Positions 2,357 through 60,191 of a DNA stretch of 64,000 nt are shown here, in pieces (within the stretch, counting starts at the first letter, position 1; each line of letters begins with the position of its first letter). The stretch lies in IMG/VR virus record IMGVR_UViG_3300010167_000013; one strand, 5' to 3'. Made by a program: the position numbers and the translations under genes. The stretch is from a virus (Duplodnaviria > Caudoviricetes). The notes beneath the pieces were generated by a model. That model was not told the origin of the DNA and did not search any database. It saw only the letters and a program-made list of their open reading frames with translations.

Positions 2357-2965
2357 TTATATATTGCAGATCAGCATGGATATTCTCTCTACAGAGTCTC
2401 CGAAATGATCTTCAAGAGCTTTGCCTATCACAGTACCGGGAGTTCTAAATTCCGATTTAGCTGCAACTCCAGGAATGTTTGATATCGACAACAGATCCCC
2501 TTTTTGAATATTTCCAGTAGCTTTGACGCTGACCCTACCAGCTATACCTACTGGCACATAGTTTTTCACTGTTTCAGGATCATCTTCATCTGCCCCCAGA
2601 ATAAATCCATACGTATCAGAGTACACTCCAACAATGAGGGTTTTGACCTCCTGGATATATTTGGTTATTCCATTTTCTCCCCAGAACACAACATCACCTG
2701 GTGTGATTATTTCTCTGGGGTCATCCTTTATCATCCACTCAGCAAGGTCGTTGTACACAGCCTGTTGTACTCTGCTGGCTGTGTTTATTATTGTCGTTGC
2801 TCCATGAATGAGAGTTCTAGTAGCCCCTATTGTCAGATTTCCACCACTAACTGTAAGATTAGCATTCATAGTAAGAGCACCAGTCATGGTGTCTCCGCTT
2901 CTATTTACTTTGTTTTCCCAGCTAGTACGGTCAGCTAGATCAATATGATGATTTTTGTTAGCCAT
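2357..2965 (-). CDS. Short tail fibre/appendage with C-terminal intramolecular chaperone (peptidase G2-like autocleavage domain)
   Basis: KVNRSGDTMTGAL fibre motif followed by YNDLAEW...PGDVV...VPVGIAGRV.VK...KGDLL...IGKALE. Confidence 0.75.
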   Translation of the reverse strand: MANKNHHIDLADRTSWENKVNRSGDTMTGALTMNANLTVSGGNLTIGATRTLIHGATTIINTASRVQQAVYNDLAEWMIKDDPREIITPGDVVFWGENGITKYIQEVKTLIVGVYSDTYGFILGADEDDPETVKNYVPVGIAGRVSVKATGNIQKGDLLSISNIPGVAAKSEFRTPGTVIGKALEDHFGDSVERISMLICNI

Positions 2966-3040
2966 TGTTCTTTACTCCTTCCTCTAGGGATGGTCATTAT
3001 ATTTTTGTGACTATCTTATTATGTAATGTAGCCCCATGGT

Positions 3041-6000
3041 TTATAATGGGGCTACATTTATCTCAGATGCCGAGGTAGCATATACCAGATGACATGGAGA
3101 GTTAGCTGGATACAAGCTCTGCATCGTAAACATATAAACTGCATGTGCGTCTGATACGTCTAACAAGGTGGGAGATACCAAATCAATCAAAGTGTTATCG
3201 CCCATCAATGCCTTGAAGTCACCTGTTACAGAAATAGTCGGAGTAGTAGTTGGTTTGATATCTTTGAATGGTATTCCGAATACAACACGATTTACTTCAC
3301 CGTTGGCATTAGATGTATTATTTCTGGTTGTAGTGAAACCAACAAATTCAGAAATAACATCATTTCCTCCTCCGGTGAATGTTTCATACCCAGTTCTATC
3401 TTTAACATTGATAGCTGTTGGGGTAACCGTAATGGTAGACTCAATGGAATCGTACACAAGATACCCAATGTTATTCATTGGATGTGCAGGACAGTCGAAT
3501 CTAATTACAGCATGACTGCATGTAGTAACTACAACGCTTGGAGAAGTCAATGCTTTTGTTGTACCATCTCCCATGAGAGCGTTGAAGCTTCCATTGACAG
3601 AAACAGTTGGTAGTACACTCTTGATATCCTTGAATGGTACTGTGAAGAACATTCTTGTTACATCACCATTTATATCAGCAGTGTTATCTCTTGCAAGAGT
3701 GATACCCTTGAAGTCAGACACATCTCCAGCTCCAGCTGCAAATACTTCTAAGTCATCCGGCCAGATAATTCTCTGGTCTGGTCCTATTGAAGATATGGTG
3801 ATACTGGATGCTGGATCTAGCACCAAGATACATGGACTACTGTGAGCAAACGATGTCGCAAGGGTGAAAGATATCATGGCATTGAATCTAGTCACAGATA
3901 CTATTTCAGGACTACTCAATACCACAGATGTATCGTCTCCAAGTAAAGCTTTGAAAGTACCAGCTAGCACAACACTTGGAGCTGAACCTCTCTGCCTGCA
4001 GAATGAAACATTGAACACAACCTTGGTTACTTCACCATTTGCATCACTTGTGTTATAGGCACTCGTGAATCCAACAAATCCGGTTATTCCATCTCCTGCA
4101 AATTCATGAATTTCATCGTCATCCATCCATCTGACATTCTTGTAGATTTCTGGATTCAACAACCTCCAGTTTACTCCATCGAATGAGAATGCATGGGTAC
4201 ACGCACTGCCAATCATGTAGTTCTCAAGAGGAAGTCCACCATACAATATTGGAGCTGGTCCGGTATTCTGAACATCTAACATGGTGGTTGCTGCACTATC
4301 ATCTTCATTGTCAAATGTAATACAAACCATACTTCCAATTTGCCTGATGAATGTAGGATCTATCATATGACTAGATCTCAGTGTTGCAACTTTTATCGAT
4401 ATATCTCCTGCAGTTGTACATTCTCCATGCATTGCTCCTGAGCCATTCTGACGCACCCATGCTGTAGTAGCTATTTGATCATCACTACTATCATCGGCAG
4501 GAGTCGGAGCTTTTGGAATACCAATAAACTCTGGAGAATCTATTGGGGCTCTTGTGATATCATTGGGATGTCTGTGATCTGCTCTAGCATAGAATCCATC
4601 ATCGGTTCCTATGAATACAGTACCATCCATTTCAGGTTCAGTCTCAGCAGATCTGGTATGACCAAATACACCACTGGTAGCTCTACCAAACGTGGATCCA
4701 GAAGGAGAAGTGTGAACCCTAGGAGCTTTTGTTGTATCCAAATATCTACCCATGTTGGCAGATAAACCAGCTACTGCAGAAGTGGACTCGAGATGATCTA
4801 TTACAGTGAATCCCTCGAGATCCAGTATCAAATTAATTACATCGTCAATGTCGGCTTTTCTGTCATTCAATATCCTACCCATGTTAGCCGACAATGGACG
4901 TTCCGCTTCGTACGAGATTAGGTTATTGATTACTTGAGTCTTGACGTATTCCGTAGTAGCTATTCTGTTTGATTTGTCACTAACTGGTTGAGTAGTTGTA
5001 GTGGGAGACTGCTTCAAGTGAATCGATGGCACCAGTTCGGTATCTCCAATTGAAGACGGAATGATGTTGGCCTTGATTATATTATCATCCTCTACTATCA
5101 CTTGGATATGTGTACCGATGCTACCATAATACAACTGTATCAATGCATTTATGTTGATTCTATTCTCGGTTCCATTTGGTAGTACTATTACCAATTCCTT
5201 GGTAGTGGAATCGAAATAGATGTTGTTGAATATGTCGGCAATAGGTATCGGAATATTCAATACGCTATCGTCGTTGAATGTGAATGTCAATGTCCCAGAT
5301 GTATTGTTCCAAGCAACATTCACAACGCAGGTTACTCCTGCCCCACCAAGCAAGATAATTTTATCGTTCAATTCGTCAAGAGCTAACTGAACAGCAGTGG
5401 ATATCGGTTTATTTACGTCTGTGGTATTATCTACATTACCCAATCCTATTTGTGATTTAGTAACACTGTGAGGATTAGCAAAATCATTCAGGTGATTATT
5501 AAATGAAGAAACTGGTACTGCTCCTATCAGAGAAGCACTAACCTTGTGTGGATTTGTGAAATCATTGATATGCTCGTATATATCTTGACGAATACCATCT
5601 AATCCACCAGGTCCATCAAGGAGAGCCTGAATATCACCTATGATAATATCTCTGATATCGAATTCCTTGCTGACAGCCTTCTGAGTAATAAACCCATCGT
5701 CATTCGGACCAAGAGTTTTATACCATTCTGGACGGCCATTGATCTTGTCCCACTTCACCAGTCCATCTGGAAGTTCCCAGCCAGATAATGTCAGATCGTC
5801 AAATAAGTCAGGTAACGATTTCCAGGTGGTATCATAGTTTTCATTTGAGAGTTTGACCAGAAGGTCTGTAATCTCACCACCGACTGCTACACCTTTTCCA
5901 TCAACACCATCTACATAGTCAACACCTTTGATGGGGGTATATCCATCATCACCCTTGATCTTGAAAGATGAAGGAGCTGTAGTTTCATCTGAGAGATCCC

Positions 6001-14908: not shown

Positions 14909-16354
14909 TTACCATTCGAAAAATACGATTCCGTTACCGCCTGCGCCGCCCAGTCCGCCTGTTCCACCCGTTGTCTGGGTTCCAGCTCCGCCTCCCCCGC
15001 CGCCTGCACCGTAACCACCACCGCCGCCTCCGCCTCCGCCAGTAGAGTTTGTATAATTACCGCCCCCATTCCCGCCTTTTGAAATCGCGCCCCCACCGCC
15101 TCCGCCGCCTGGTGCCATACTAACGGTGCTCGCCATACCAGAGCCCAAAGACCCGCCCAATGAACCAGCAGTACCATTCGTACTCGAGCCACCAAAACGA
15201 GTTCCACTGCCACCCTTGCCTCCGCCAGAATAGCCTATGCCTCCTGTTGTAATTAAATTTGTGGTTTGATTACCTCCGCTACCTCCGCCTCCGCCCCCAC
15301 CGCCTCCGCCGCCTCTTCCAGTGCCCCCATCTCCGCCATTACCACCGCTATATCCCGAAATTATATCGCCGCCAGCACCGCCTCCTCCTCCTCCACCGCC
15401 GAAGCCCCCAATGCCGCCGCCACCTCCATTACGGGCTGGAGTGGCTTGACCCTGCAACCCATTCAAGCCATTCGTAGCGTAGATTGAGGGTATAGAAATA
15501 TTCCCTTTGATTAATGTTATTGTACCAAGCCCAGCACCGCTCAACACAGTATTTCCCGCACCTACCGTAATAGATATATTTGCTCCTGCTGTAACGGTAT
15601 AAACACGGTCAACGCTTTCTCCAGCTTTACCGCCAACGCCAGCGATTTTATCCGTTGTAGGATTACCTCCATCTCCACCCGACGCAAAAGCTAATATCTT
15701 AATAGCAGTAACTCCTGTCGGCACGGTAAACGTCCCGTTCGCGGTAAACACGGCTTTTCTCGCGCCTGTTCCACCAGAACTACTACTTGACGAATTCAAT
15801 ATTGCATTTAGTTTCGCCATTGCAGTACCCGCCGACGCAGTACCGCCCGTATCACCTGTAACACCTAAATTACTTTGCGCGGCTCTAGTACTAATAGCTG
15901 CATCTAAATTCCCAGCTCTAGCATCTGTCCAAGTATTTACAAATTTATTTGCTATCCATTTGATTATGCTGAACACACTACTGCCATTATTAGCAGCAGT
16001 ATCTTCAGAATTCCCAATTGATTCACTAATGTCATCTATGTCTTGCTGCATATTAGAAAAATTAACAGAAACTAATATCTCACCCTCCAAATCGGGTAAT
16101 ATATTCAAGTCAATAACAAATGTCTTGACAGTCTCAACTTCTTCAGGTTCAATGGTTACTGTAGTCACCATACCACTAGCCTTGTTCCCAATGTAAATCT
16201 CAAACTGGTATTCAATTGGGTTCTCATCGTCATTCGGAGGAATAACAATTGCACAGCTGTACTTCTTGTCACCTATTGGTACTAGTGGATAAAATGCATC
16301 TAGATCCAGTGAATACACTTTCACTTCTGGTATCAATGTAACAACTTTAGCCAT
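14909..16354 (-). CDS. Glycine-rich tail fibre/receptor-binding protein
   Basis: VFTANGTFTVPTGVT..., long Gly tracts, GAGGNGIVFFEW ending. Confidence 0.8.
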   Translation of the reverse strand: MAKVVTLIPEVKVYSLDLDAFYPLVPIGDKKYSCAIVIPPNDDENPIEYQFEIYIGNKASGMVTTVTIEPEEVETVKTFVIDLNILPDLEGEILVSVNFSNMQQDIDDISESIGNSEDTAANNGSSVFSIIKWIANKFVNTWTDARAGNLDAAISTRAAQSNLGVTGDTGGTASAGTAMAKLNAILNSSSSSSGGTGARKAVFTANGTFTVPTGVTAIKILAFASGGDGGNPTTDKIAGVGGKAGESVDRVYTVTAGANISITVGAGNTVLSGAGLGTITLIKGNISIPSIYATNGLNGLQGQATPARNGGGGGIGGFGGGGGGGGAGGDIISGYSGGNGGDGGTGRGGGGGGGGGGGSGGNQTTNLITTGGIGYSGGGKGGSGTRFGGSSTNGTAGSLGGSLGSGMASTVSMAPGGGGGGGAISKGGNGGGNYTNSTGGGGGGGGGYGAGGGGGGAGTQTTGGTGGLGGAGGNGIVFFEW

Positions 16355-35915: not shown

Positions 35916-38441
35916 TTATTCACCTCCAAATCTATTTCCATATTTTTCAACAGCCTTTGTAGCTCCATACTCATAGACTTTGTTTCCTCCAGTTTCATAA
36001 TCCGGACGTTGGATATTAATCTCGAGGATGATTCTCTTGATAATATCTCTGAATGAGACATAGACAAGACATCTCATGATCATGCGCTCTTGTTCCCATT
36101 CGTTTGCAGTGAAGAGTATCTCGATGTTATGAACCATTGTTCCAATCCAAGGACGGTATACTTCCATCTGAGATTCGGTGTATCCTCTGCGGACCTCTGG
36201 CTCATTCCATTCGTACAAGTATCCTCTGCAAGCTTTCTCCAGACCTTTCTTGAGAGCATTGAGTACACGTACATTGTTCTCTTCAAGAAGAGCAGATGCA
36301 TCTCTTTGACGGGTATTCTGTACAGCTCTTTGAACACTTCTCCCCTCATCGGTTGTTAGATAATAGTTGAGTCTAGAAGTGAAGAGGCGTTCTTTGACAT
36401 CCCAATCTATGAGATCTATGTCTGGGCGGAACGAATCACGGATCATACTACCGGTAACAACTCTACTGGAGGAATTCCTACGAATAGCACGTAAGGTTGC
36501 ATAGTTGTACGTGAACGGTTTATTCAGTCCTTCTCTCATGATATGAGGTACAAGACTCTGAGCAAGGAAGTAGGTCGTAGTAACTTGAACTCTTTTACTC
36601 GACATGGGATCATAGATTTCGTAGTACCCAAGATCGATCGAAGTATTACGTCCATCGAATTCTTCCATCATATTGATGATATCAATTAATTCAGAGCTTA
36701 CTGTTACATTTCTAATACCAGTCAAATTACAGTCGAGATGCAATAAACACCCAGCACCTTCTGCAAGATCTACGGTCATACCATTCCGATTACGGAACTG
36801 ATTGAGATCATACATGGCTCTCTTGACATTGAGATCACTGAAGTCAACCAGGAAGCTGTTAGATCCAAGAATAGCCAATTGTTGAGCATCTTTGTCTGTC
36901 AATATGGTAGACTGGGTGTACAGCGGCATCATCTGAGTATCCAACCAGATATCTTCATCAGCCGTCATATTGTAATTCGCATCAAATATGAAATCTAAAT
37001 TAACTCGAGCCGGAGATAAAATCTTTCTATCCTTTTCTCCACGGAATGCCTTGACATACTCCTTGGAAAGCAAGAGCTTCATCTCAGCACTATTCGGAGA
37101 ACGAACATCTCCACCAACACTAATTTCTTGGAAGTCGCCGTCATGTCCACCATCGAATCTATTTCCAACTGGAATCTGAAGATCTAAACCATTGTATTGA
37201 TCGGCATCGATCTCTGTCTCTTGCCCTTCGTCATAGACAATGTTTCCAGTCTCAGGATCAATGTGAACTACACGATATATCCAACGGTATCCATCGTTGA
37301 GAGGATCCGCTATTACCAGTACCCTAGCACCAACAAATGCAGTAGCCCAATCAGAAATATTGAGAGGCTTCTGAGCTCCTACTGTGTTAGGAACGGTTAA
37401 ATTTGGTTCAACCCAAGGACCGGTTGGTTTGACGGTATAATTTCTGTAGTACGGAATCAATTGAGAACTCCTGGTATTCAATCTCATACCAAATATGGGA
37501 TCAAATGCATCTGGAAGAATAGAGTTGGCATATCCAAGTTCAATTATATCATCTGCAGTACCAGATGCCCCAACATATACCGAGTTCTTGTCTACTATCT
37601 CTTCCTTGTAAAAATTATACAGATGAACAAAGCTATCCTCGTATGTATGAATCTTCACAGGACAAGAACCGGTAGAGAATTGGTCAAGAACATCGTCCAC
37701 CAATGTGGACATTTCATATCTGGTAGTCTGGTACATGGAGCCGGCAAACATATTGGTTACTCGAGTTCTGAGATCATTGGTCAGAAGAGTATAACGATAC
37801 ATCTTCATACCATATTCTTTTTCTGCTTCATTGTCTCTAGCAAGTCTCATCGAGTAATGATTGCCATACCTACCACGACCAATACTCCTTACGTAGAAAA
37901 GAGGTACAGTCATGTACCCAGTCAATGGATCTGGGGTTAGTTTAGTTAAACTCTGACCAAACTCTTCTATATCTCCATCGCTCATTGCACCTTCGGTAAG
38001 ATACGGTTTGGCTGCATACGCTGTGGAGAATTTAACCTCCATGCGAATCTTACCAGTTTCCTGAGAAAGCTCATCCAGTATTTTTCCGCTACGGAAGTGA
38101 GCCAACACAACCATATTGGAATACGTTGCATTATCAGGTAATACTCTGCAAAACCATACACTAGTATGCCCATTGAATAATGCATCAGCCTGCAACGAAG
38201 ACTGACCGTACCTTTGGTAGTTACCCCTTCCAAACAATGCTTGCTTCGTTCTGATGTTACTCAGTTTGATGAACGTGTTGTCTATACCAGTATCGGCCCC
38301 GGTCACCACACAGGTTCCATATGGCAGATCATCTGGATCAATCGGGGTTGCCACAGTCTCATCATACCACGTTTGGTCAAAAATTACAGTGTGGACATGA
38401 GGGTGAGCATAGTAGGGTATTATCTGAGCACTCGATGCCAT
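35916..38441 (-). CDS. Contractile tail sheath protein
   Basis: 841 aa. FG..NY.RYGQ, CRVLPDNATY, GRGRYGN and SALLEENNVRV motifs; C-terminal VSFRDII.RI.LEI.I. Confidence 0.85.
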   Translation of the reverse strand: MASSAQIIPYYAHPHVHTVIFDQTWYDETVATPIDPDDLPYGTCVVTGADTGIDNTFIKLSNIRTKQALFGRGNYQRYGQSSLQADALFNGHTSVWFCRVLPDNATYSNMVVLAHFRSGKILDELSQETGKIRMEVKFSTAYAAKPYLTEGAMSDGDIEEFGQSLTKLTPDPLTGYMTVPLFYVRSIGRGRYGNHYSMRLARDNEAEKEYGMKMYRYTLLTNDLRTRVTNMFAGSMYQTTRYEMSTLVDDVLDQFSTGSCPVKIHTYEDSFVHLYNFYKEEIVDKNSVYVGASGTADDIIELGYANSILPDAFDPIFGMRLNTRSSQLIPYYRNYTVKPTGPWVEPNLTVPNTVGAQKPLNISDWATAFVGARVLVIADPLNDGYRWIYRVVHIDPETGNIVYDEGQETEIDADQYNGLDLQIPVGNRFDGGHDGDFQEISVGGDVRSPNSAEMKLLLSKEYVKAFRGEKDRKILSPARVNLDFIFDANYNMTADEDIWLDTQMMPLYTQSTILTDKDAQQLAILGSNSFLVDFSDLNVKRAMYDLNQFRNRNGMTVDLAEGAGCLLHLDCNLTGIRNVTVSSELIDIINMMEEFDGRNTSIDLGYYEIYDPMSSKRVQVTTTYFLAQSLVPHIMREGLNKPFTYNYATLRAIRRNSSSRVVTGSMIRDSFRPDIDLIDWDVKERLFTSRLNYYLTTDEGRSVQRAVQNTRQRDASALLEENNVRVLNALKKGLEKACRGYLYEWNEPEVRRGYTESQMEVYRPWIGTMVHNIEILFTANEWEQERMIMRCLVYVSFRDIIKRIILEINIQRPDYETGGNKVYEYGATKAVEKYGNRFGGE

Positions 38442-38497
38442 ATTATCCTATCTCCTTTTCTACATATTTTTGATGAGTAAATCCTTGATAACTCTTT

Positions 38498-38509
38498 TAA
38501 CTAGTTGTT
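38498..38509 (-). promoter_or_regulatory. Late-type promoter (AACA-N6-TA) of the sheath/tube operon
   Basis: AACAACTAGTTA, 57 nt upstream of the sheath start. Confidence 0.5.
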
Positions 38510-38535
38510 GATATGGCATCAAGTGGTCATCAGGA

Positions 38536-38549
38536 TAATTATATATTAT
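38536..38549 (+). promoter_or_regulatory. Early-type promoter core
   Basis: TAATTATATATTAT upstream of the nuclease-MTase gene. Confidence 0.6.
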
Positions 38550-38581
38550 AATGATAATGATAAAGCAGGAGGTGTAGGATA

Positions 38582-40468
38582 ATGCCAAAAATTAAACCAG
38601 AAGGATTTATACTAGCATGTGACAAATGTCATAAAGAATTTGACTGCAGCAAACAGCAATCACGTAGGTCCAAGAGGAAAGGATACTATAGATGCAGAAG
38701 CTGTGCAAGAAAGAGTAACAATCCTATGTACACCAGAAAGTATGAGTTCATATGCAAGGATTGTGGAGTGAAGGAAACCCTTTCATATGAAGGGTATAGA
38801 ACTGTAACAAAGAGAGGGTATTATCAGTGTAGAAGTTGTATTAGTAAGCAACAATATGTCGATAATCCTGATCTTGGGAATATTCATGGAGATAAAATGA
38901 ATGAATATTATATCGACAATCCTGATGCCCATAGTATCCATAGTAAAAGTTATTGGGATTCCATGGAAGATCAAGAAAGATCTTCCCGGAACAAGCAGCC
39001 GTATATTGACGATCCAATGCTATCAAAATTCCAAGGTAAACGATTATTAGAAGATAGGGAAAAATGGTTTAACTCATTATCACCTGAGGCTCAACAAGAA
39101 CATATCACAAGTCATCTTAATTCCTTGCATACCGGAAGAGACAGATACTATGAGGGACTATCAAAAGAGGATCTAATGTCTCGTAGCAAGGTTGCAACAG
39201 AAGGTTACTTCAAGTGGCTAAACGGTATGACTGATGCACAATTCTTTGAATACAATAACAAAAGGTTGGCCAAAACCGGTGGAAAAAATAATCTACACAA
39301 GAAATTCGAAAAATGGTTCGAAGAATCATATATCTCAAATCAATTTCATATCTACCCGGAATATAGGGTAATAGTTGAAGGAATCCCTAAACGTTGGGAC
39401 TATGTAATATACGATAAAGTTACCAATGAACTAGCTATGGTGGTAGATCTAGACGGTAGACGCTTTCATGGAGATTATGGAGATTATGATGGTATACATG
39501 GCAAAGAGGAATATGACGAGCGTAGATATCAATTTATCCCCAATGGTGTAAAATTATGTATCATATACGAGGAAAGTTTCTCTAATTCATTCGATTACAT
39601 GATCAAACAACTAGTACTGAATTATGACGAATTTATTGAGGAACAATTCAAAACATGTAGAAACATACCATTCCCAAATCCTAAATACCAAGAAAAAGAT
39701 CTAATTACTGCATGGAAACATTTGGGGAAAATAGATCCAAACTATAAATATCTCAAGAAGTCCACCAATAGTCGGGTGGGGGATAGAGTAATTACCCATT
39801 TCCATGAGTCCATATATTCAGCTAATGTGAAAGGTGATATATCACCACATGCAGCATGGTATGATGATGACCTACTGAAGAAGGTTATAATGAATAGAGT
39901 TATCTACATAAATCATCTAAACCCAAACAAAATTCTCCAGGGATTTAACATCAGTAAGATAGCACCAAAGGTTAGTGTATTCTCAGCTGGTAGAGCTAAG
40001 TTACTCATTCACAAATACCTCAATGACTATCAAGTTGTATTTGATCCATTCAGTGGGTTCAGTGGTAGAATGTTGGGTACACTAGCATTGGGTAAACAGT
40101 ATGTAGGACAGGACATCAGTGAGATACATGTCAGGGAGTCTAATGACATCATTGAGTTTTTAGTAGCTAATAGCTGCATCGAGAGAGATATTGTTACAGT
40201 TACTTGTAGGGATATACTACAGTCATCAGGTGAATATGGCTGTCTATTCACATGTCCTCCATATGGTGATAAAGAACAATGGTTAGATGTCCCAGTAAGT
40301 AGGAAATCTTGTGATGATTGGATAGACGAATGCCTACAGAGGTTCAAGTGTAACAAGTACTTGTTTGTGGTGGATAAGACTGAGAAGTATCAAAAATATA
40401 TAGTAGAGACTATAAGTACCAAAAGCCACCTAAGTAAAGTTAAAGAATACGTGATATTGATATGGTAA
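38582..40468 (+). CDS. Zn-ribbon / Vsr-DUF559-like endonuclease / amino-DNA-methyltransferase fusion
   Basis: Four CxxC; EYRV...KRWDY..VDLDGRRFHG nuclease motif; VFDPFSGFSGR (SAM motif I) and FTCPPY (motif IV). Confidence 0.75.
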   Translation: MPKIKPEGFILACDKCHKEFDCSKQQSRRSKRKGYYRCRSCARKSNNPMYTRKYEFICKDCGVKETLSYEGYRTVTKRGYYQCRSCISKQQYVDNPDLGNIHGDKMNEYYIDNPDAHSIHSKSYWDSMEDQERSSRNKQPYIDDPMLSKFQGKRLLEDREKWFNSLSPEAQQEHITSHLNSLHTGRDRYYEGLSKEDLMSRSKVATEGYFKWLNGMTDAQFFEYNNKRLAKTGGKNNLHKKFEKWFEESYISNQFHIYPEYRVIVEGIPKRWDYVIYDKVTNELAMVVDLDGRRFHGDYGDYDGIHGKEEYDERRYQFIPNGVKLCIIYEESFSNSFDYMIKQLVLNYDEFIEEQFKTCRNIPFPNPKYQEKDLITAWKHLGKIDPNYKYLKKSTNSRVGDRVITHFHESIYSANVKGDISPHAAWYDDDLLKKVIMNRVIYINHLNPNKILQGFNISKIAPKVSVFSAGRAKLLIHKYLNDYQVVFDPFSGFSGRMLGTLALGKQYVGQDISEIHVRESNDIIEFLVANSCIERDIVTVTCRDILQSSGEYGCLFTCPPYGDKEQWLDVPVSRKSCDDWIDECLQRFKCNKYLFVVDKTEKYQKYIVETISTKSHLSKVKEYVILIW

Positions 40469-40556
40469 GTTTCCGTGTATCATATATCCTACTAATTCAA
40501 TGATATATTCTATATATGTAACAAAATAAAATATATTATACTTGGGAGGTATAATC

Positions 40557-40850
40557 ATGAACGACAACGACTTGATGACGTACAAAGAGTTTGTTGCCAG
40601 CAGAACAACAAACAGCAGTTTGATAAAAACATTCAGACCGCATCTCAAACTTACCCAGGAACATCTTGGGAGACTCTTGGGTGTAAGACAGGACACGGTC
40701 TCTAGATGGGAAAAATCCATTGGCATCTCTGAGCATATGCCGATAAGTAAGTTGTGTAAATTTGCACAACTTTTAGGAGTTAGCGTTGAAGACCTAATGT
40801 ACCGCTATAGGGCAGTCAATGACAAACTTGTTTCGGTGAGGTATCAATAA
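40557..40850 (+). CDS. XRE-family HTH regulator
   Basis: LTQEHLGRLLGVRQDTVSRWE motif; GGGAGG RBS; promoter variant CATATAT-N11-AATGATATATTCT at 40481-40511. Confidence 0.85.
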   Translation: MNDNDLMTYKEFVASRTTNSSLIKTFRPHLKLTQEHLGRLLGVRQDTVSRWEKSIGISEHMPISKLCKFAQLLGVSVEDLMYRYRAVNDKLVSVRYQ

Positions 40851-40888
40851 AAAATAAACCCAGGCGAATTCGCCTGGGTTTATTTTTT
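40849..40888. terminator. Bidirectional terminator
   Basis: AAAATAAACCCAGGCGAATTCGCCTGGGTTTATTTT. Confidence 0.8.
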
Positions 40889-41603
40889 AATAATAAATTA
40901 TTTTTTCCAATGGACTAACAGCCTCTTCATTTCCTTCAATTGAGTTGTTGATTCCAGTAGTAATCATTCTATTGATATCTTCGAATACTAGCCCGGAAAA
41001 TGTCGATAGCCCTTCAACTACTCCACGTACATTCCCAGTAGCATAATCATATCCGTTAGGATTACTCTGTCTGCCATAATGCTGTCCATATCGTTCCTTG
41101 AAGTTGTTTGGATTACGATATATACTGGCGATAATCATCTCATATATCTTTGATGGAACCTTGAAGTTTACATTGGCTATTTCTAGGTTCCTCCACCATA
41201 TATCTAGAATCTTTGAATACTGCAATGTTCTAGGTAGTTTACCCATGAGCATTGTATTCAGGAAGGATTCAGCAATACCCTTCCCTTCCTGGATGGATTG
41301 ATGAAGTATATATGAGTCTTTCAAATACTTTGACACAATGACCTTTATTGTCCTACCGTTTACTTTGATCTCGTCATTTGAAATATCATATGTCGAGATA
41401 TTTACGATGGAAGGAATGTTCAATAATTTGATAGGACCTTCTACCCCGTTAGCATATGATCTGATGTAGACAATTCCAATTGTCTCAAATGAATCACCCT
41501 TGTTTATTGCGAATCCATCAGCTTCATAGTCAGATGGAATATATATTTCCAGGTAATCTTTTGAGTATATTCGTCCATCCTTGGCATACAATAATTCGTT
41601 CAT
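40887..41603 (-). CDS. Probable virion RNAP beta' C-terminal subunit
   Basis: KIYEMIIASIYR resembles beta' KHIEVIVRQM; STFSGLVFEDINRMITTG resembles SFISAASFQETTRVLTEA; ends SPLEKII. Confidence 0.55.
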   Translation of the reverse strand: MNELLYAKDGRIYSKDYLEIYIPSDYEADGFAINKGDSFETIGIVYIRSYANGVEGPIKLLNIPSIVNISTYDISNDEIKVNGRTIKVIVSKYLKDSYILHQSIQEGKGIAESFLNTMLMGKLPRTLQYSKILDIWWRNLEIANVNFKVPSKIYEMIIASIYRNPNNFKERYGQHYGRQSNPNGYDYATGNVRGVVEGLSTFSGLVFEDINRMITTGINNSIEGNEEAVSPLEKIIYY

Positions 41604-41618
41604 ATGGTCCCTCCCATT

Positions 41619-43814
41619 TTATTGATTTATTAACTCGAAAAAGTGAGGTTGAATCGAAACGGTATCATCGAAGGGATTCTCCAGCTCATTACGTCTTTTA
41701 GAATATACTTCATCATGAACATGTGGATTCACTGATACTAAATATTTTATTTGCTCCTCTACTCTAATAGCATCTTCGATGAATATTGATTCATATGTTA
41801 CATTTTCTGTAGAAAAAAATCCTGATAGATGATCCTTTTCTGCCATACGGGTTTCCATATCTATTTCAACTGGGCCTAATATCGGATGTTCTGATTTGAC
41901 GATCCCGAATATCTCTAAGTTGTCTCCAGTGTAGTAGATGTATATTGCATGTAGATAGCTCATCACACAGTCATCATGTTCCTTGGAGACAGCTTGTATT
42001 CTTCCAGTAGAGGTTCTCACCAGTTTACATATATCATCCACTAGATACTCAGTATTCAATAGCTGTTTGCATTCGTTCACATGTTTGAACAGCAACTCAA
42101 ACATTGCTTCTCGAACTTTTTTGGTCAAATAAGTTCCATACTTTTTCCAAGACTCTGCAGCTTTTCGTAATTCGTAATCTGCTTCAGATTCTTCTACCAT
42201 CTGTTCAAGTTGTCTTTTTGATTCCGACCAGTAGAGATTCTCCTTGATGGATGTTTGATTCACGATCATTTGAATCAAGAAGATACCCATGGAATTCTTT
42301 TCTGGAATTATCACGGCCTTTGGAATATGTTCGTTGACTAGAGTAACAAGCACTCTGCACAAATCGGTTCCTGAAATGTAGGGACTCTTGAACTCAGCAG
42401 CCACCTGGAGATTATATGGGTTGATGGCCGTGATTGAGGTATTGTCTCCTCCACCTCCTGCTGCAGGATCTATTCCAACTATGTATGGTATCCTCTCATC
42501 TAAATCCTTCAAGCCATTAATTGTTCTTCCTTGACCATGGTCGTAGAGGCGAAATCTCCACTTGTTATTCAGAATCAGATCCTTGTCAGACTTCTTCATA
42601 TTTGAAATCAGGAACTCAATATCTTCTGGACTAATTGGAGAATCTGATGAACCTCTCAGACGTTGCAGTAGTATCTCACGTCTGATAGCCATCTTGTCAC
42701 CAGCTAGCTTGTACTGTTCCATTACCCAGTCATATGTTTTCCTGACCTGGTAGTAGTGATACTCCAGGTAGAATACCTCAATAACCTCACGTTCTCTGAC
42801 AATAGTTTCATCAGCATGATATTGTTCTCTGTACACAGACATGTATTCCTGAATCTGTGTTTCTGTCATATCATATATTTTTTCAGACCATGGAATCATT
42901 GATTCAATAATTGGTTTTGATTCAATTCCTTCTCTTGTGTCCAAATTTCCACAAGTTGTTGTCATCATACGACCATATGGTTTCCCTTGGCTCTTGGCAT
43001 TATCGGCTGCCGTTTTGAATGCTGGAGCTGAGTTGGAAAGTAATTCCTTGAAGAATGGGGTGTGTTCTATCTCATCGAAATACAACATAGCAGCTGCAGC
43101 ACCACGAGCCATACCTTGAGCATGACTCAGGCTAGCTGGTCTTGGATGTATCTCCAGCCTATTGTGAAGTAAATTGTTCTGAAGTATCTCAGTAGACTGT
43201 CTGGCTTTCTTCACCTTTCCATCGTCTGCCTGGTATCTTTTGAACTGCAACCACTCCGGTAGTAATTCTATGTAATCCCTGAGATAGGCTAAATTTCGTT
43301 TTGTATTATCTGTCTCTTTCCCGAAGAAATGTACATTCAAATTTTGAGATAACTGAAATGCCCATGCAACTATGGTAGCAATAGTTCCTGTGGTTTTCCA
43401 TGTTTGACGAGGTTCACACAAACACCAGTCATATCTTTTATCAAAACACCATAGAGCTGCAGCTAGTCCTCTATGAAGCTCAAATGGAACTATACCTTTG
43501 TCGGTTCTCATTCTAACTACAGTTCTTGCATAAAACCATAGATTGTTCTGTAGTTCATGCATTAGGGCTTGAACTTCTTGCTTGGTTATATTTGGCTTGA
43601 ATGGATCTATGTCAGCAACTCGTGGATTGATTATATACAACATGAAGTAGTAGTTCTTTATTCCAAGTACCTTCAGCTCCATTGCTGTCTGAATGAATGA
43701 TTTGTTTGTTGGAGAAAAATCGAATAACTTACCATTTATTTCTCTGATATCACTAATGCTACTCACCTCCTTATTACGCACTGATTGCTTATTATCTAGG
43801 TAGTATTGGATCAT
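41619..43814 (-). CDS. terL: Terminase large subunit
   Basis: PRQTWKTT (Walker A variant), YFDE (Walker B), TTTCG, IVGIDPA and HDDCVMSY (RNase H nuclease) motifs. Confidence 0.9.
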   Translation of the reverse strand: MIQYYLDNKQSVRNKEVSSISDIREINGKLFDFSPTNKSFIQTAMELKVLGIKNYYFMLYIINPRVADIDPFKPNITKQEVQALMHELQNNLWFYARTVVRMRTDKGIVPFELHRGLAAALWCFDKRYDWCLCEPRQTWKTTGTIATIVAWAFQLSQNLNVHFFGKETDNTKRNLAYLRDYIELLPEWLQFKRYQADDGKVKKARQSTEILQNNLLHNRLEIHPRPASLSHAQGMARGAAAAMLYFDEIEHTPFFKELLSNSAPAFKTAADNAKSQGKPYGRMMTTTCGNLDTREGIESKPIIESMIPWSEKIYDMTETQIQEYMSVYREQYHADETIVREREVIEVFYLEYHYYQVRKTYDWVMEQYKLAGDKMAIRREILLQRLRGSSDSPISPEDIEFLISNMKKSDKDLILNNKWRFRLYDHGQGRTINGLKDLDERIPYIVGIDPAAGGGGDNTSITAINPYNLQVAAEFKSPYISGTDLCRVLVTLVNEHIPKAVIIPEKNSMGIFLIQMIVNQTSIKENLYWSESKRQLEQMVEESEADYELRKAAESWKKYGTYLTKKVREAMFELLFKHVNECKQLLNTEYLVDDICKLVRTSTGRIQAVSKEHDDCVMSYLHAIYIYYTGDNLEIFGIVKSEHPILGPVEIDMETRMAEKDHLSGFFSTENVTYESIFIEDAIRVEEQIKYLVSVNPHVHDEVYSKRRNELENPFDDTVSIQPHFFELINQ

Positions 43815-57353: not shown

Positions 57354-60191
57354 ATGCCTAAGGAATCAAAACAAAAGTCAAAGGAATTACCAAAAGCAAA
57401 CGATATCAAGATAAATAAAATCAATGTCTTCTTCAAACCACCCATACTGAAATCGGTTATGAAGATATTGACAATGGAACACAGTGGGTTCCGAACACTC
57501 AAATCAGTTAAAAATATAAATCGTCTATTCAACTCCCTAGATATGAGTAAATATAACACTGAGGAACTCATATCATATGTCTGGTGCATCAAGTATATGT
57601 CAAAGCAATGGTTGGATGGCATCACAAGTATAGATCTAATATGGGAGGGAGCTAAGCGTAGTACTGAGTATGATATCATCAAGGATGATATTATATCCAA
57701 GTCTATCGGGGATCCAAATATTATATCAGCTCCAGAAGCCAAAGCTGTATTTAATTTGATTGGTGAAGCTCTCCAGTTTGGATTTCTGGTAGCAATAAAA
57801 GATAAGTATGAAGATCTATTGATGCAGATCGATCTGGATAACCCTGGAGCATTCAGAGAACTTGCAGATAGGCTATTTACCATATCTCAATCTCTACTGG
57901 ATATCAAACATAACACGAATCTAGTAACAAACAAGGTTACATTCAACACAGGTGATATGGATTCAGTGAAGGAATCAATATCTCAAACGATTACATCATT
58001 GAGTGCATCAAATAATATATTCAAGGTTGGAATCAAAAGGTTGAATACGTTACTGTCTCCTGGGTACATGAATGGTGCTATCTATGTGTATCTGGGGTTG
58101 CCTGGTTCAGGAAAAGCGCAACCCGATGATACTCCAATTCCGACACCTAATGGATTTAAGCGTCTTGATGAATTAAATATAGGAGATTATATATTTAATT
58201 TGGATGGGGAACCAACTTTGATCACTGGAATATTTCCCCAAGGTATACAAGACACTTATAAGGTTACATTTACAGATGGAAGATCCACTAGATGTAATAT
58301 TGAACATCTTTGGTATACTCTTGCAAGAAACGGAAGCACTGGATACTATAGTCCTGTAATAAGAAAGCTTTCTGAGATGATGGATGATTTTGAAAGGGAT
58401 CATCCAAGTGATCCTGGAAAGAAACATCATAAATATATAATACCGAATAATGGTGTAGTAAGGTTCTCTGAACAAGAAGTGAGAGTGCATCCATGGGCAA
58501 TAGGATATATTATAGGAAATGGATGTTGTAAACAACGAGAATTTCAGGTATCATCACCCGATAATTTAGCCCCAAAGAAAATTGCCAGGATACTTAATAA
58601 AAAATGGGAGAGTTCTCATGATACAAACTATTCATATATCTTTAGAAATCAGAATCGTAGTAGATTCCATACCAAAGATTTGATAGGAGATATTCCGGAG
58701 ATATTTGATAAATATTCATATGAGAGGCGAATTCCTCCTTCGTATTTATATAATACCGAAAGTGTGAGAAAAGAATTGTTGAGGGGGTTGATGGATAGTG
58801 ATGGATGTATAACTGTTAATAGAGAAAGAGATATTCCAAAATTTAATGTATCATATTCTACTAGTTCAAAAGGACTAGCTGAAGATATAATGTTGCTTCT
58901 TAGATCTTTGGGTATAGCATGTTCTATATATGAGTATGATCCATTAAATAGAACAAATCCTAATAGTAATAGAATTGAATATAGTATCACATTGAATACA
59001 TCAAATTTGAAAATTTCTACATTATTCACTTTAGGTAAAAAATATGAATTAGCCATGGAGGCTTTTTCATATCGTAACATAAGGCGATATGAATTTAATA
59101 GAATATGTAATATTGAAAAAGTTGAACCTACGAGTCAAAGATGTATTATGGTGAAAGATTGGAGACATGTATATCTCACTGAAGATTTTATTCCAACTCA
59201 TAATAGTTTGATGCTCCTGAAGTCTGCGCTAGATATAAGAAAGTATAATCCCAACTTTCAGCCGAAGACTCCAGGAATGAAACCAGCTGTGTTATACATT
59301 ACAATGGAGAACACTTTCACAGAAACCATTGAAAGAATATGGAACATGTCATTCGATGATAGTATCACGAATTACACAGAAGAGCAAGCCATTGAAAAAA
59401 TATCCAAGGAGCTAGGAATTGATTATATCTATCGAGATGATATTCAAGTCACTGACATGGACACTGGGAAAAGTGAAATAGCTGAACTATTGGCAAATAA
59501 GGATGATATACAAAACATAGAAGTTGTCGTGAAATATTTTACATACAGAGAAATCAATACAGATGATCTATTTGTAATTATTCAAGATCTCAGGGATGAA
59601 AATCTAGAAGTATGTGCGCTGGTAGTTGATTATATTAAGAGGATAAGACCTGCCGATGGGGTTCCTTCTGACAACGAAAAACTTGAATTGAATAGGGCAA
59701 TAAATGAACTGAAGGCACTGGCTGGAATACTAGATATTCCTGTCATCACTGCTCATCAGATGAATAGAGTTGCTGCAGCTACTGTTGATGGAGCAGCTAG
59801 AGATGGAAAGGGAGATGTAACTAAATTAGTTGGTAGAGAGCACGTTGGATCTGCCTTCGAGATCATAGAAAGCGCTGACTGGGCTGCTGTCTTGAACATC
59901 GAATACAAACCTGGCTCTATGGATGATAGATATCTGGTCATCAATGTAGTGAAGAGAAGAAGGATAGAAGCTGGAGAATCAGACTTCGCCAAATATACAT
60001 ACATTGCTCATCCATTTGCCAAGAATAATGGATTTCGATTATTGGATGACTTTGGCTTGGACAAGATATTATCAGTGCAAAGTTTGGTGACTGATATCAA
60101 TGAAGTTGGAAAGGAAAAGACAAATGCTACCGAGAGGCTAAAGATAATGAGCCCATCGGAGTTTGTTGAACTTGATGATGACTTTGATTAA
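57354..60191 (+). CDS. dnaB: DnaB-like replicative helicase (intein-containing; ~582-aa extein)
   Basis: GLPGSGK|S Walker A, YITMEN, VVDYI and PVITAHQMNR motifs. Confidence 0.9.
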   Translation: MPKESKQKSKELPKANDIKINKINVFFKPPILKSVMKILTMEHSGFRTLKSVKNINRLFNSLDMSKYNTEELISYVWCIKYMSKQWLDGITSIDLIWEGAKRSTEYDIIKDDIISKSIGDPNIISAPEAKAVFNLIGEALQFGFLVAIKDKYEDLLMQIDLDNPGAFRELADRLFTISQSLLDIKHNTNLVTNKVTFNTGDMDSVKESISQTITSLSASNNIFKVGIKRLNTLLSPGYMNGAIYVYLGLPGSGKAQPDDTPIPTPNGFKRLDELNIGDYIFNLDGEPTLITGIFPQGIQDTYKVTFTDGRSTRCNIEHLWYTLARNGSTGYYSPVIRKLSEMMDDFERDHPSDPGKKHHKYIIPNNGVVRFSEQEVRVHPWAIGYIIGNGCCKQREFQVSSPDNLAPKKIARILNKKWESSHDTNYSYIFRNQNRSRFHTKDLIGDIPEIFDKYSYERRIPPSYLYNTESVRKELLRGLMDSDGCITVNRERDIPKFNVSYSTSSKGLAEDIMLLLRSLGIACSIYEYDPLNRTNPNSNRIEYSITLNTSNLKISTLFTLGKKYELAMEAFSYRNIRRYEFNRICNIEKVEPTSQRCIMVKDWRHVYLTEDFIPTHNSLMLLKSALDIRKYNPNFQPKTPGMKPAVLYITMENTFTETIERIWNMSFDDSITNYTEEQAIEKISKELGIDYIYRDDIQVTDMDTGKSEIAELLANKDDIQNIEVVVKYFTYREINTDDLFVIIQDLRDENLEVCALVVDYIKRIRPADGVPSDNEKLELNRAINELKALAGILDIPVITAHQMNRVAAATVDGAARDGKGDVTKLVGREHVGSAFEIIESADWAAVLNIEYKPGSMDDRYLVINVVKRRRIEAGESDFAKYTYIAHPFAKNNGFRLLDDFGLDKILSVQSLVTDINEVGKEKTNATERLKIMSPSEFVELDDDFD
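58116..59204 (+). mobile_element. Class 3 intein (363 aa) with LAGLIDADG endonuclease
   Basis: Starts Ala (AQPDDT); block B CNIEHLW; block F QRCIMV; block G IPTHN|S; LAGLIDADG motifs IGYIIGNG and LRGLMDSDG. Confidence 0.9.

Follow-up and report, generated by a model that had tools for sequence, protein, structure and literature searches.

Background

A gene for a single protein that appears able both to cut DNA and to methylate it, lodged among the virion genes of a phage, raises the question of whose interest such an enzyme serves: that of the phage, as a weapon against foreign DNA, or that of the gene itself, as a mobile element that spreads by cutting genomes which lack it. The gene considered in the present work lies in a 64,000-nucleotide stretch of DNA, referred to below as the window, from IMG/VR virus record IMGVR_UViG_3300010167_000013 (Duplodnaviria; Caudoviricetes). 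It encodes a 628-amino acid (aa) fusion protein in which zinc ribbons and short helical repeats are followed by a nuclease domain, a helical domain and a small S-adenosylmethionine (SAM) methyltransferase, and it shares a cassette with a promoter motif, a gene of the XRE helix-turn-helix (HTH) family and a terminator. The original prediction, made from the sequence alone, had described region 38536-40888 in these terms, and the description is confirmed: the region comprises the 628-aa open reading frame (ORF) with promoter, XRE gene and terminator, and every motif that had been quoted is found in the translation of the ORF at 38582-40468.

The reading favoured here, to which an even chance is assigned, is that the cassette is a mobile single-chain cut-and-protect element, a free-standing gene of the homing-endonuclease type. 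What the analysis itself supports are the domain folds, the conservation of the motifs, the insertion polymorphism, the spread over many loci and in several copies, the shuffling of modules and the promoter motif; that DNA would be the substrate, that the array would confer site specificity, that methylation would block cleavage and that the gene would home are steps proposed beyond these observations.

Results

Insertion of the cassette between virion genes

According to PHROG matches the window is the structural region of a large uncultured myovirus, with genes for a tail sheath, a 238-aa virion protein and the large terminase, as well as for a major head protein, tail fibres and a GroEL-like protein. 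The sheath gene and the 238-aa virion gene enclose the fusion gene, which stands by itself on the opposite strand, so that the free-standing position that had been proposed for it is borne out, the sheath, virion protein and large terminase genes all being on the minus strand.

Presence or absence at the same locus in relatives, which had been suggested as a check, can be read from three IMG/VR relatives (L006, L004 and L010). The cassette is absent from the junction in all of them: a virion gene of 234-237 aa is followed by a gap of 76-161 bp and then by the sheath gene. The virion proteins of these relatives are 57-63% identical to that of the window, and the L006 sheath protein is 64% identical. 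In the alignment of the junctions homology resumes at the ribosome-binding site region of the sheath gene (window ~38442-38476), and since the junction is empty in the three relatives, the whole of the ~2.4 kb at 38477-40886, with the XRE gene and terminator included, is an insertion. Elsewhere on the contig of one of the three there is a family member, without an XRE gene. Neither the window nor L006 gave a match in Rfam or tRNA scans, so nothing points to the cassette being surrounded by an intron.

Three other metagenome contigs carry an identical 628-aa protein among their gene calls. No second copy of the fusion gene was found within the window by tblastn, and the 8.5-kb region had no megablast match among 50,697 phage records.

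A separate observation concerns the large terminase region of L006 (5360-7781; IMGVR_UViG_3300031555_005587), which consists of two ORFs of 189 aa and 451 aa about 500 bp apart, while in the window, L004 and L010 the terminase is a single ORF of 716-731 aa. The split could be due to an intron or another insertion; Rfam detected no group I or group II intron in this region.

The nuclease domain

The block of sequence that follows the repeats reads WDY...VVDLDGRRFHGD...DERR. An AlphaFold2 (AF2) model of residues 225-355, built on a 120-sequence alignment, has an alpha-beta-beta-beta-alpha-beta core and a mean confidence score (pLDDT) of 78. An exhaustive VIA-align search with this model had as its top matches Bax1 (Z 9.1), the homing endonuclease I-Bth0305I (3r3p; Z 8.6, root-mean-square deviation 3.3, 94 of 98 aligned), DUF559 (3hrl; Z 8.5) and Vsr (1cw0; Z 8.3), and further down BpuSI (Z 7.0) and DrdV (Z 6.3); the matches found by Foldseek were all PD-(D/E)xK nucleases, with weak E-values.

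The EDxHD residues of I-Bth0305I are E170, D196, N208, H213 and D222, equivalent to E25, D51, H64, H69 and D97 of Vsr (PMC3239194). When the window protein is mapped by eye, E243, D273, D291, H296 and D312 fit the EDxHD order, and the spacing of 5 between N208 and H213 is matched by D291 and H296. These acids and the His are invariant in 25 homologues; among 120 homologues D312 is the only invariant column, most other nuclease residues being conserved at 90% or above, with D289 and D298 below this level. Because the fold matches are joined by residues that fall on the conserved positions by order and spacing, the middle domain is accepted as a predicted active nuclease of the Vsr/DUF559/EDxHD type on the by-eye mapping, and the PD-(D/E)xK fold that had been expected there is upheld by the AF2 model and by the matches at Z 8.3-8.6.

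The methyltransferase module

Residues 345-628 are modelled by AF2 at a pLDDT of 92.5 as a helical domain and a seven-stranded Rossmann core, which supports the SAM-methyltransferase fold of what had been described as a C-terminal amino-methyltransferase with an unusual CPPY motif. Motif I (FDPFSGFSGR) occupies residues 487-496 and motif IV (TCPPY) residues 557-561. In the alignment of 25 homologues motif I, D511 after strand 2, and C558, P560 and Y561 are invariant, and in that of 120 the methyltransferase motifs are invariant or nearly so, except for G492 and F493. Motif IV has the form C-[PS]-P-Y throughout the family, with its Cys invariant.

The solved structures nearest to the model are METTL5 (Z 15.0), PH1948 (14.4), Trm14 (13.9), Trm11 (13.7) and TGS1 (13.6), together with RsmD-like enzymes, and these neighbours are small amino-methyltransferases with (D/N)PP(F/Y); among viral proteins the best structural matches come from giant viruses and carry the name N4-cytosine DNA methylase. 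At the level of sequence, the window protein matches PF01555 with an E-value of 0.0019 and 18.6 bits, under the Pfam gathering cut-off of 26.7, its profile matches the N4-cytosine DNA methyltransferase 8S9M weakly when run against the PDB (E 0.016), and the PADLOC models MTase_II and mad2 match the methyltransferase. Weak Pfam matches to Methyltransf_15 occur among the relatives, and the fusion protein had no match in NCBIfam.

HMMER aligns TCPPY with the TSPPY of 8S9M in permuted order. A C-terminal target-recognition domain is absent, motif IV being followed by 67 aa in which the model shows the closing Rossmann strands only. The permuted pairing implies that the module is a circularly permuted form of the beta class, in which motif I precedes motif IV and a target-recognition domain of its own is lacking; on its sequence it would thus be a permuted relative of the N4/N6 DNA methylases, and DNA its probable substrate. 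As Cys is isosteric with the Ser of N4-cytosine enzymes, methylation of N4-cytosine is the simplest guess at the reaction that the module may catalyze.

The N-terminal array

Ahead of the nuclease the window protein has two zinc ribbons, CDKC...CRSC (C13-C41) and CKDC...CRSC (C58-C86), in which KRGYY.CRSC is duplicated, followed by repeats of the forms YVDNPD, YIDNPD and YIDDPM and W/Y..LS.E. The four Cys of the first ribbon are invariant in the family in the 25-homologue alignment. The second ribbon is a duplication, and the window protein is unusual in that this ribbon replaces the first repeats; P0026 likewise has a second ribbon, but at another, deeper position in its array.

Conservation in the alignments of 25 and of 120 members is complete or almost complete for the first ribbon, the nuclease block and motifs I and IV, while the array between ribbon and nuclease consists of a variable number of W..LS.EEK-type helical repeats that vary in length and sequence. 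Repeat number and sequence differ widely among homologues and also among paralogs of one genome, and Pfam finds weak matches to DUF3106 and STPR repeats in the arrays of relatives. When paralogs of one genome are compared, the catalytic halves (nuclease and methyltransferase blocks) are ~70-80% identical by eye and the N-terminal arrays are largely unalignable, which is what would be expected if the array sets specificity. The array is presumed to bind DNA and would choose the site. The placement of zinc ribbon and repeats ahead of the nuclease is the layout of a homing endonuclease and not that of a type IIG enzyme with its C-terminal target-recognition domain, as had been proposed.

Distribution of the family and of its modules

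A word-indexed search yielded 549 homologues at E-values up to 1e-3, all of them unnamed and many on contigs of 100-560 kb. Their neighbours in other genomes include gyrase B and an RNA polymerase (RNAP) subunit, a topoisomerase with an intein, DnaB, a prohead protease, and an RNAP gene interrupted by an HNH gene. Genomes often hold two or three copies: a complete 292-kb phage has two, and a 266-kb contig from a metagenome-assembled genome (MAG) has three genes with the module. The family is a sporadic, multi-locus, multi-copy free-standing gene. Its members are largely confined to phages, since only 4 loci, each on a MAG contig, turned up in one scan of 185,579 prokaryote genomes.

The methyltransferase module also occurs with partners other than the nuclease to which it is joined in the window. 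When 1.84 billion representatives were scanned by HMMER with residues 346-628, 1212 clusters (50% identity) were obtained at E-values up to 1e-3, of which 289 were at or below 1e-30. In almost all of the matches listed the module forms the C-terminus of a protein of 450-880 aa, and a few proteins of 275-303 aa consist of the module alone. In Lak phages and other types of fusion, too, the helical domain and the core are conserved as a pair. Among 75 distant representatives of the module the SAM-binding motifs are nearly invariant, PF01555 is matched at E-values up to 1e-3 in 34 (best 4e-8), and DUF7487 repeats are present in 53; single representatives carry NUMOD3, an MTES_1575 restriction endonuclease (REase), a TnsA-like domain or DUF723. 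In two of the DUF7487 fusions, read directly, a C2H2 finger is accompanied by DUF7487 repeats (E 4e-18 and 7e-27) and by a PD..E-I-K nuclease motif, after which comes the methylase module, which in one of them is 52% identical to that of the window; the PD..E-I-K nuclease has a weak match to DUF1064. Structural look-alikes in the ESM Atlas include putative LAGLIDADG-methylase and DUF723-methylase fusions, of which the LAGLIDADG assignment is unconfirmed by sequence and serves as a lead only.

Among cultured or named phages the only close matches are in Lak megaphages, and tblastn of the module against phage records matched only Lak, two Vibrio, two Haloarcula, two Mycobacterium and one uncultured record. 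The Lak protein was considered as a stand-alone methylase, and this was rejected: the Lak-B5 match belongs to a 647-aa ORF that also encodes two zinc ribbons and a Lys-rich linker.

Three further observations were made on other contigs. On the 266-kb MAG contig JAZLKX010000052.1 (L103), the one with three CPPY/CSPY-module genes, a C5-cytosine DNA methylase (2778-3710; PF00145, E 1.3e-10) lies directly 3' of a gene for a DUF7487-nuclease-methylase fusion. On ena:ERZ28655934 scaffold_15 (L107, 6940-11902) the RNAP subunit gene beside member P0019 is apparently split by an HNH/NUMOD4 endonuclease gene, and several mobile nuclease genes are clustered there. On ena:ERZ28655900 scaffold_2 (L090, 1-13989) the gene order is mirrored around position 5950 (1541, 632, 662 and then 662, 632, 1541 aa), most likely as a palindromic-join artefact of assembly rather than a real inverted duplication.

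Promoters, XRE gene and genomic setting

The early promoter recognized by the virion RNAP of phage AR9 has the consensus AAATATATATTAT-(6N)-G, derived from differential RNA sequencing and primer extension (PMC5312081). Sites of this type with up to 2 mismatches occur 29 times in the window, compared to 9.3 expected, and none of 100 shuffles reached 29. The copy ahead of the fusion gene, whose sequence variant also precedes several other genes, overlaps a sigma-70-like TGGTCA-17-TATAAT. A generic sigma-70 scan found 9 sites in the region where 11.6 were expected, which is no enrichment, so that the promoter claim rests on the AR9-type motif; the gene's own early promoter, which had been predicted, is borne out in this sense by the match of 12 positions in 13. 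More generally, a motif AATTATATATT(A/C)T, one base off the AR9 early consensus and about threefold more frequent than in shuffles, recurs 20-35 nt 5' of several start codons in the window, and it likely marks early genes of the phage. A further short motif, AACAACTAGTTA at 38509-38498 on the minus strand, lies 57 nt before the sheath ATG within the left edge of the cassette and fits the AR9 late motif AACA-(6N)-TA; it may be a late promoter that offsets the terminator inserted between the virion and sheath genes, and is best taken as a lead only.

The adjacent XRE gene is likewise borne out by its HTH_3 match, with a start most likely at ATG 40557, in agreement with an existing gene call. Control in the manner of a C protein, which had been suggested as a possibility, fares less well. 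The gene lies downstream of the nuclease, its PADLOC match to Control_protein is weak (E 0.0026), a peptide-pattern scan of IMG/VR, which reaches close relatives only, found no relatives of it, and no XRE-type gene was called beside family members in 8 other contexts. The XRE gene is thus part of this insertion and not a trait of the family, which leaves C-protein-style control unsupported. AT-rich imperfect palindromes overlap the promoter, and ATATATKWWAC half-sites, a pattern chosen post hoc, occur three times at 40477-40541 (3 of the 5 in the window); neither can be distinguished from promoter motifs.

The predicted terminator is borne out by the hairpin listed in Table 1. The region forms a 27-nt inverted repeat with 93% complementarity, and it shares bases with the stop codon of the 238-aa virion gene, which converges on it.

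Table 1. Coordinates of the cassette, its components, the neighbouring genes and the recurrent motif in the window
Feature	Position	Strand	Details
Whole inserted cassette (promoter, nuclease-methyltransferase gene, XRE gene, terminator)	38477..40886	.	Absent from same junction in related phages
Early-promoter-like motif AATTATATATTAT	38537..38549	+	33 nt upstream of ATG; 12/13 match to AR9 early consensus
628-aa fusion protein gene	38582..40468	+	ORF; ribosome-binding site AGGAGG at 38567-38572
Two CxxC...CxxC zinc ribbons	38618..38839	+	Residues 13-41 (38618-38704) and 58-86 (38753-38839)
Short helical repeats (Y.DNPD; W..LS.E), presumed DNA-binding array	38843..39286	+	Residues ~88-235
Predicted Vsr/DUF559/EDxHD-type PD-(D/E)xK nuclease domain	39287..39616	+	Residues ~236-345; proposed catalytic E243, D273, D291, H296, D312
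Helical domain always accompanying methyltransferase core	39617..39946	+	Residues ~346-455; confidently modelled helices
Class I SAM-methyltransferase core	39947..40465	+	Motif I FDPFSGFSGR 40040-40069; motif IV TCPPY 40250-40264
Second, weaker early-promoter-like motif TAAAATATATTAT	40527..40539	+	11/13 AR9 consensus, G at +1; precedes XRE gene
97-aa XRE-family HTH gene	40557..40850	+	HTH_3 E 2e-6; PHROG transcriptional repressor families E 4e-11
Two-way intrinsic terminator	40848..40889	.	19-bp perfect hairpin, A-run and T-run on its flanks; folding -28.3 kcal/mol, z -10.2
Tail sheath gene	35916-38441	-	PHROG match
Virion protein gene, 238 aa	40887-41603	-	PHROG match
Large terminase gene	41619-43814	-	PHROG match
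AATTATATATT(A/C)T sites	14139, 14545, 16910, 16929, 34724, 38537, 43820, 50947, 57144		Window 14139-57156

Two other genes of the window deserve mention. A 945-aa protein encoded at 57354-60191 on the plus strand matches terminase-large-subunit PHROGs at residues 247-620 and DnaB-like helicase PHROGs at residues 645-873, and is probably a P-loop helicase or primase-type replication protein rather than a second terminase. A 481-aa protein encoded at 14909-16354 on the minus strand, without a PHROG match, consists in its C-terminal half almost entirely of Gly-rich repeats, which account for the rise in G+C to a local maximum of 52% at 15-16 kb; the protein is probably a fibre.

Discussion

Proposed mechanism

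In the mechanism proposed here, the cassette would have entered an AR9-like giant phage between its genes for the virion protein and the sheath, as a gene for a single chain of four modules: a variable ribbon and repeat array, a nuclease of the EDxHD/Vsr type, a helical domain and a small amino-methyltransferase. The gene would be transcribed early, from a promoter of the virion RNAP type, and its product would use the N-terminal array to bind its site. DNA of the phage itself, which would arrive methylated and become hemimethylated after replication, would be methylated on a base at or near the site and would not be cut, while unmethylated DNA with the site, in co-infecting related phages and possibly in the host, would be cut. 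Repair of the cut rival genome from the carrier genome would then copy the cassette or its flanks, with homing or marker exclusion as the outcome. Two observations bear on the joint action of nuclease and methylase. The methylase is under the same purifying selection as the nuclease, and the pairing of the same methylase module with nucleases recurs, including pairing with the unrelated PD..EIK nuclease with DUF7487, which is counted in favour of the cut-and-protect reading.

Several findings weigh against this reading or limit it. The Vsr/DUF559 link rests on a predicted structure of moderate confidence, in which the conserved loop at 299-310 is disordered or unmodelled, and on Z values only modestly above background. 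In phmmer and hmmsearch comparisons with the PDB, made with the protein and with a 25-sequence profile, Vsr, DUF559 and I-Bth0305I gave no match at E-values up to 10, and Pfam scans of 25 and 75 members found neither Vsr nor DUF559, apart from one MTES_1575 match at 1.1e-4. On the side of the methylase, the solved structures closest to the model act on RNA, and the first residue of motif IV is Cys and not D, N or S, as a consequence of which ordinary amino-methylation is not assured. The Lak-B5 homologue, which consists of its two ribbons, the linker and the module, has no recognisable nuclease, so that the methylase can serve other ends. As for mobility, the near-identical contigs all have the cassette, and no presence/absence polymorphism was found among near-identical genomes.

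Competing explanations

The explanation closest to the cut-and-protect element is that of a single-chain restriction-modification (R-M) weapon without homing, which would degrade unmethylated host or rival DNA early in infection under the protection of its fused methylase, the scatter of the gene being due to the turnover of accessory genes. Phage nucleases with such a division of targets exist, as T4 EndoII and EndoIV spare hydroxymethylcytosine DNA. The early-promoter motif suits a weapon, and the order of nuclease, helical domain and methyltransferase recalls the type IIG enzymes, of which two, BpuSI at Z 7.0 and DrdV at Z 6.3, appeared in the nuclease comparison; for the Mom-REase fusions of jumbo phages a reading as protecting self and attacking others has also been published (PMC7824862). 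The long and highly variable arrays suggest long, rare sites, however, which suit homing better than bulk degradation, and the family members adjoin conserved essential genes, as free-standing homing endonuclease genes do. This explanation overlaps the favoured one, from which it differs only in whether cutting drives the spread of the gene itself, and it is considered unlikely though deserving of weight. The same non-canonical Cys and missing target-recognition domain that complicate the assignment of the methylase could instead mean that the protein is a plain homing endonuclease whose CPPY half no longer methylates and serves only as a clamp for DNA binding or base flipping. This is improbable, because the SAM-binding motifs show little or no variation, being invariant or nearly so across the alignments of the family and nearly invariant among the 75 distant representatives, the invariance of the Cys fits a catalytic role, and the module also occurs by itself (275-303 aa) and with zinc ribbons only, where a mere clamp would not be expected to persist without a nuclease.

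The similarity to Vsr admits a further alternative, in which the methylase would evade host restriction and the Vsr-like domain would act as its repair partner by nicking mismatches or lesions at the modified base. Vsr acts beside Dcm, and the association of Vsr genes with cytosine methylases is a classical one; in the present comparison Vsr ranks with the best structural matches (Z 8.3), and the invariant motif IV Cys invites thoughts of cytosine chemistry. Yet the matches to I-Bth0305I and DUF559 equal that to Vsr, the module is also paired with the unrelated PD..EIK nuclease and possibly with LAGLIDADG (a lead only), none of which are mismatch-repair enzymes, and variable ribbon and repeat arrays combined with sporadic insertion are traits of homing endonucleases and not of repair enzymes, so that a repair function must be rated as very improbable. 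Finally, the methylase might act on RNA, either host rRNA or tRNA or phage transcripts, with the fusion being unrelated to the protection of DNA. The top solved structural neighbours (METTL5, Trm11, Trm14, TGS1 and RsmD-like enzymes) are RNA amino-methyltransferases, and the weak Methyltransf_15 matches point in the same direction, but in sequence the module resembles DNA N4/N6 methylases and type II methyltransferases, and it is consistently fused to DNA nucleases and to zinc-ribbon modules of the DNA-binding type, which makes an RNA substrate the least probable of the explanations considered.

Significance

A bolder version of the cut-and-protect reading, held tentatively and with more doubt than belief, is that the family represents an undescribed class of phage gene-drive elements, in which fused methylation would give immunity to the element's own cut site, the array would act as a modular recognition code that is reassorted to create new specificities, and unrelated nuclease folds (EDxHD, PD..EIK with DUF7487, and possibly LAGLIDADG) would repeatedly have acquired the CPPY module. 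A carrier of such an element may not need to lose or mutate its target, and in a bolder sub-reading the invariant Cys of motif IV may mark a chemistry other than ordinary N-methylation.

Homing endonucleases and R-M systems are as a rule regarded as two distinct kinds of selfish DNA cutter, and if the cut-and-protect reading is true, the family would be a hybrid of the two. It would then explain how a giant phage can hold several such nucleases without cutting itself, and possibly how rivals are excluded in the gut. A large phage-restricted superfamily that joins a homing-type nuclease and a DNA-binding array to a methylase of its own would also be of practical interest for site-specific cutting and methylation, as its enzymes are compact and their specificity seemingly resides in a swappable repeat array, while the invariant Cys that replaces D, N or S in motif IV poses a question for enzymology. 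It had been noted with the original prediction that the architecture might be that of an already characterised family; searches of the literature for nuclease-methylase fusions, for DUF7487 and for EDxHD domains combined with a methylase found no published description of this fusion.

Comparison with known systems

The nearest relatives in layout are the EDxHD homing endonucleases, which include I-Bth0305I of Bacillus phage 0305phi8-36 (PDB 3R3P) and phage enzymes of the Hef type (PMC3239194, PMC2677866). In both these enzymes and the window protein a catalytic fold like that of Vsr and a modular DNA-binding region occur in one chain, with the nuclease C-terminal to the binding region, and both are encoded by sporadic, free-standing genes of phages. 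Under the by-eye mapping the E, D, x, H and D positions would be held by conserved residues in the window protein. The link between them is structural only, however, without a sequence-profile connection; the window protein has a zinc ribbon and helical repeats in place of NUMOD2 or HTH domains, its gene does not lie in an intron or intein, and it has a complete C-terminal methyltransferase, which no described EDxHD enzyme possesses.

With type IIG/IIC enzymes (BpuSI, MmeI, DrdV, Eco57I) the window protein shares the arrangement of a PD-(D/E)xK nuclease, a helical connector and a methyltransferase with motif I before motif IV in one chain, and also, as proposed here, the logic of cutting or methylating at a single recognition event. 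It differs from them in having no C-terminal target-recognition domain, recognition presumably being carried out by the N-terminal array, in its CPPY rather than NPPY/F motif IV, in a nuclease of the Vsr/DUF559 branch, and in being phage-encoded and present in multiple copies; the type IIG families Eco57I and MmeI were not matched by the window protein in Pfam, NCBIfam or PADLOC.

Circularly permuted relatives of the beta-class methyltransferases have been noted in jumbo phages by Iyer et al. 2021 (PMC7824862). The beta-class N4/N6 DNA methyltransferases (PF01555; 8S9M) align with the window protein over motifs X-I-II (FsA..A..li..yl...d.vFDPFsG...r) and share a motif IV of the form T-[SC]-P-P-Y, while the window protein has motif I before motif IV instead of IV...I, Cys where they have (D/S)PPY, a score under the gathering threshold, and a dedicated helical domain before the core. 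The Mom-REase fusions of jumbo phages (PMC7824862) likewise combine a DNA-modifying enzyme with a domain of the restriction-endonuclease fold in giant phages, for which a logic of protecting self and attacking others has been proposed, but Mom is GNAT-like where the methyltransferase here has a Rossmann fold, and no zinc-ribbon and repeat array has been described for them. The C-protein-controlled type II R-M systems (PvuII, Esp1396I) resemble the cassette in the inclusion of a small XRE-type HTH gene together with nuclease and methylase, and are unlike it in that the HTH gene here is downstream of the nuclease instead of ahead of it, is not conserved with the family, and has no established C-box.

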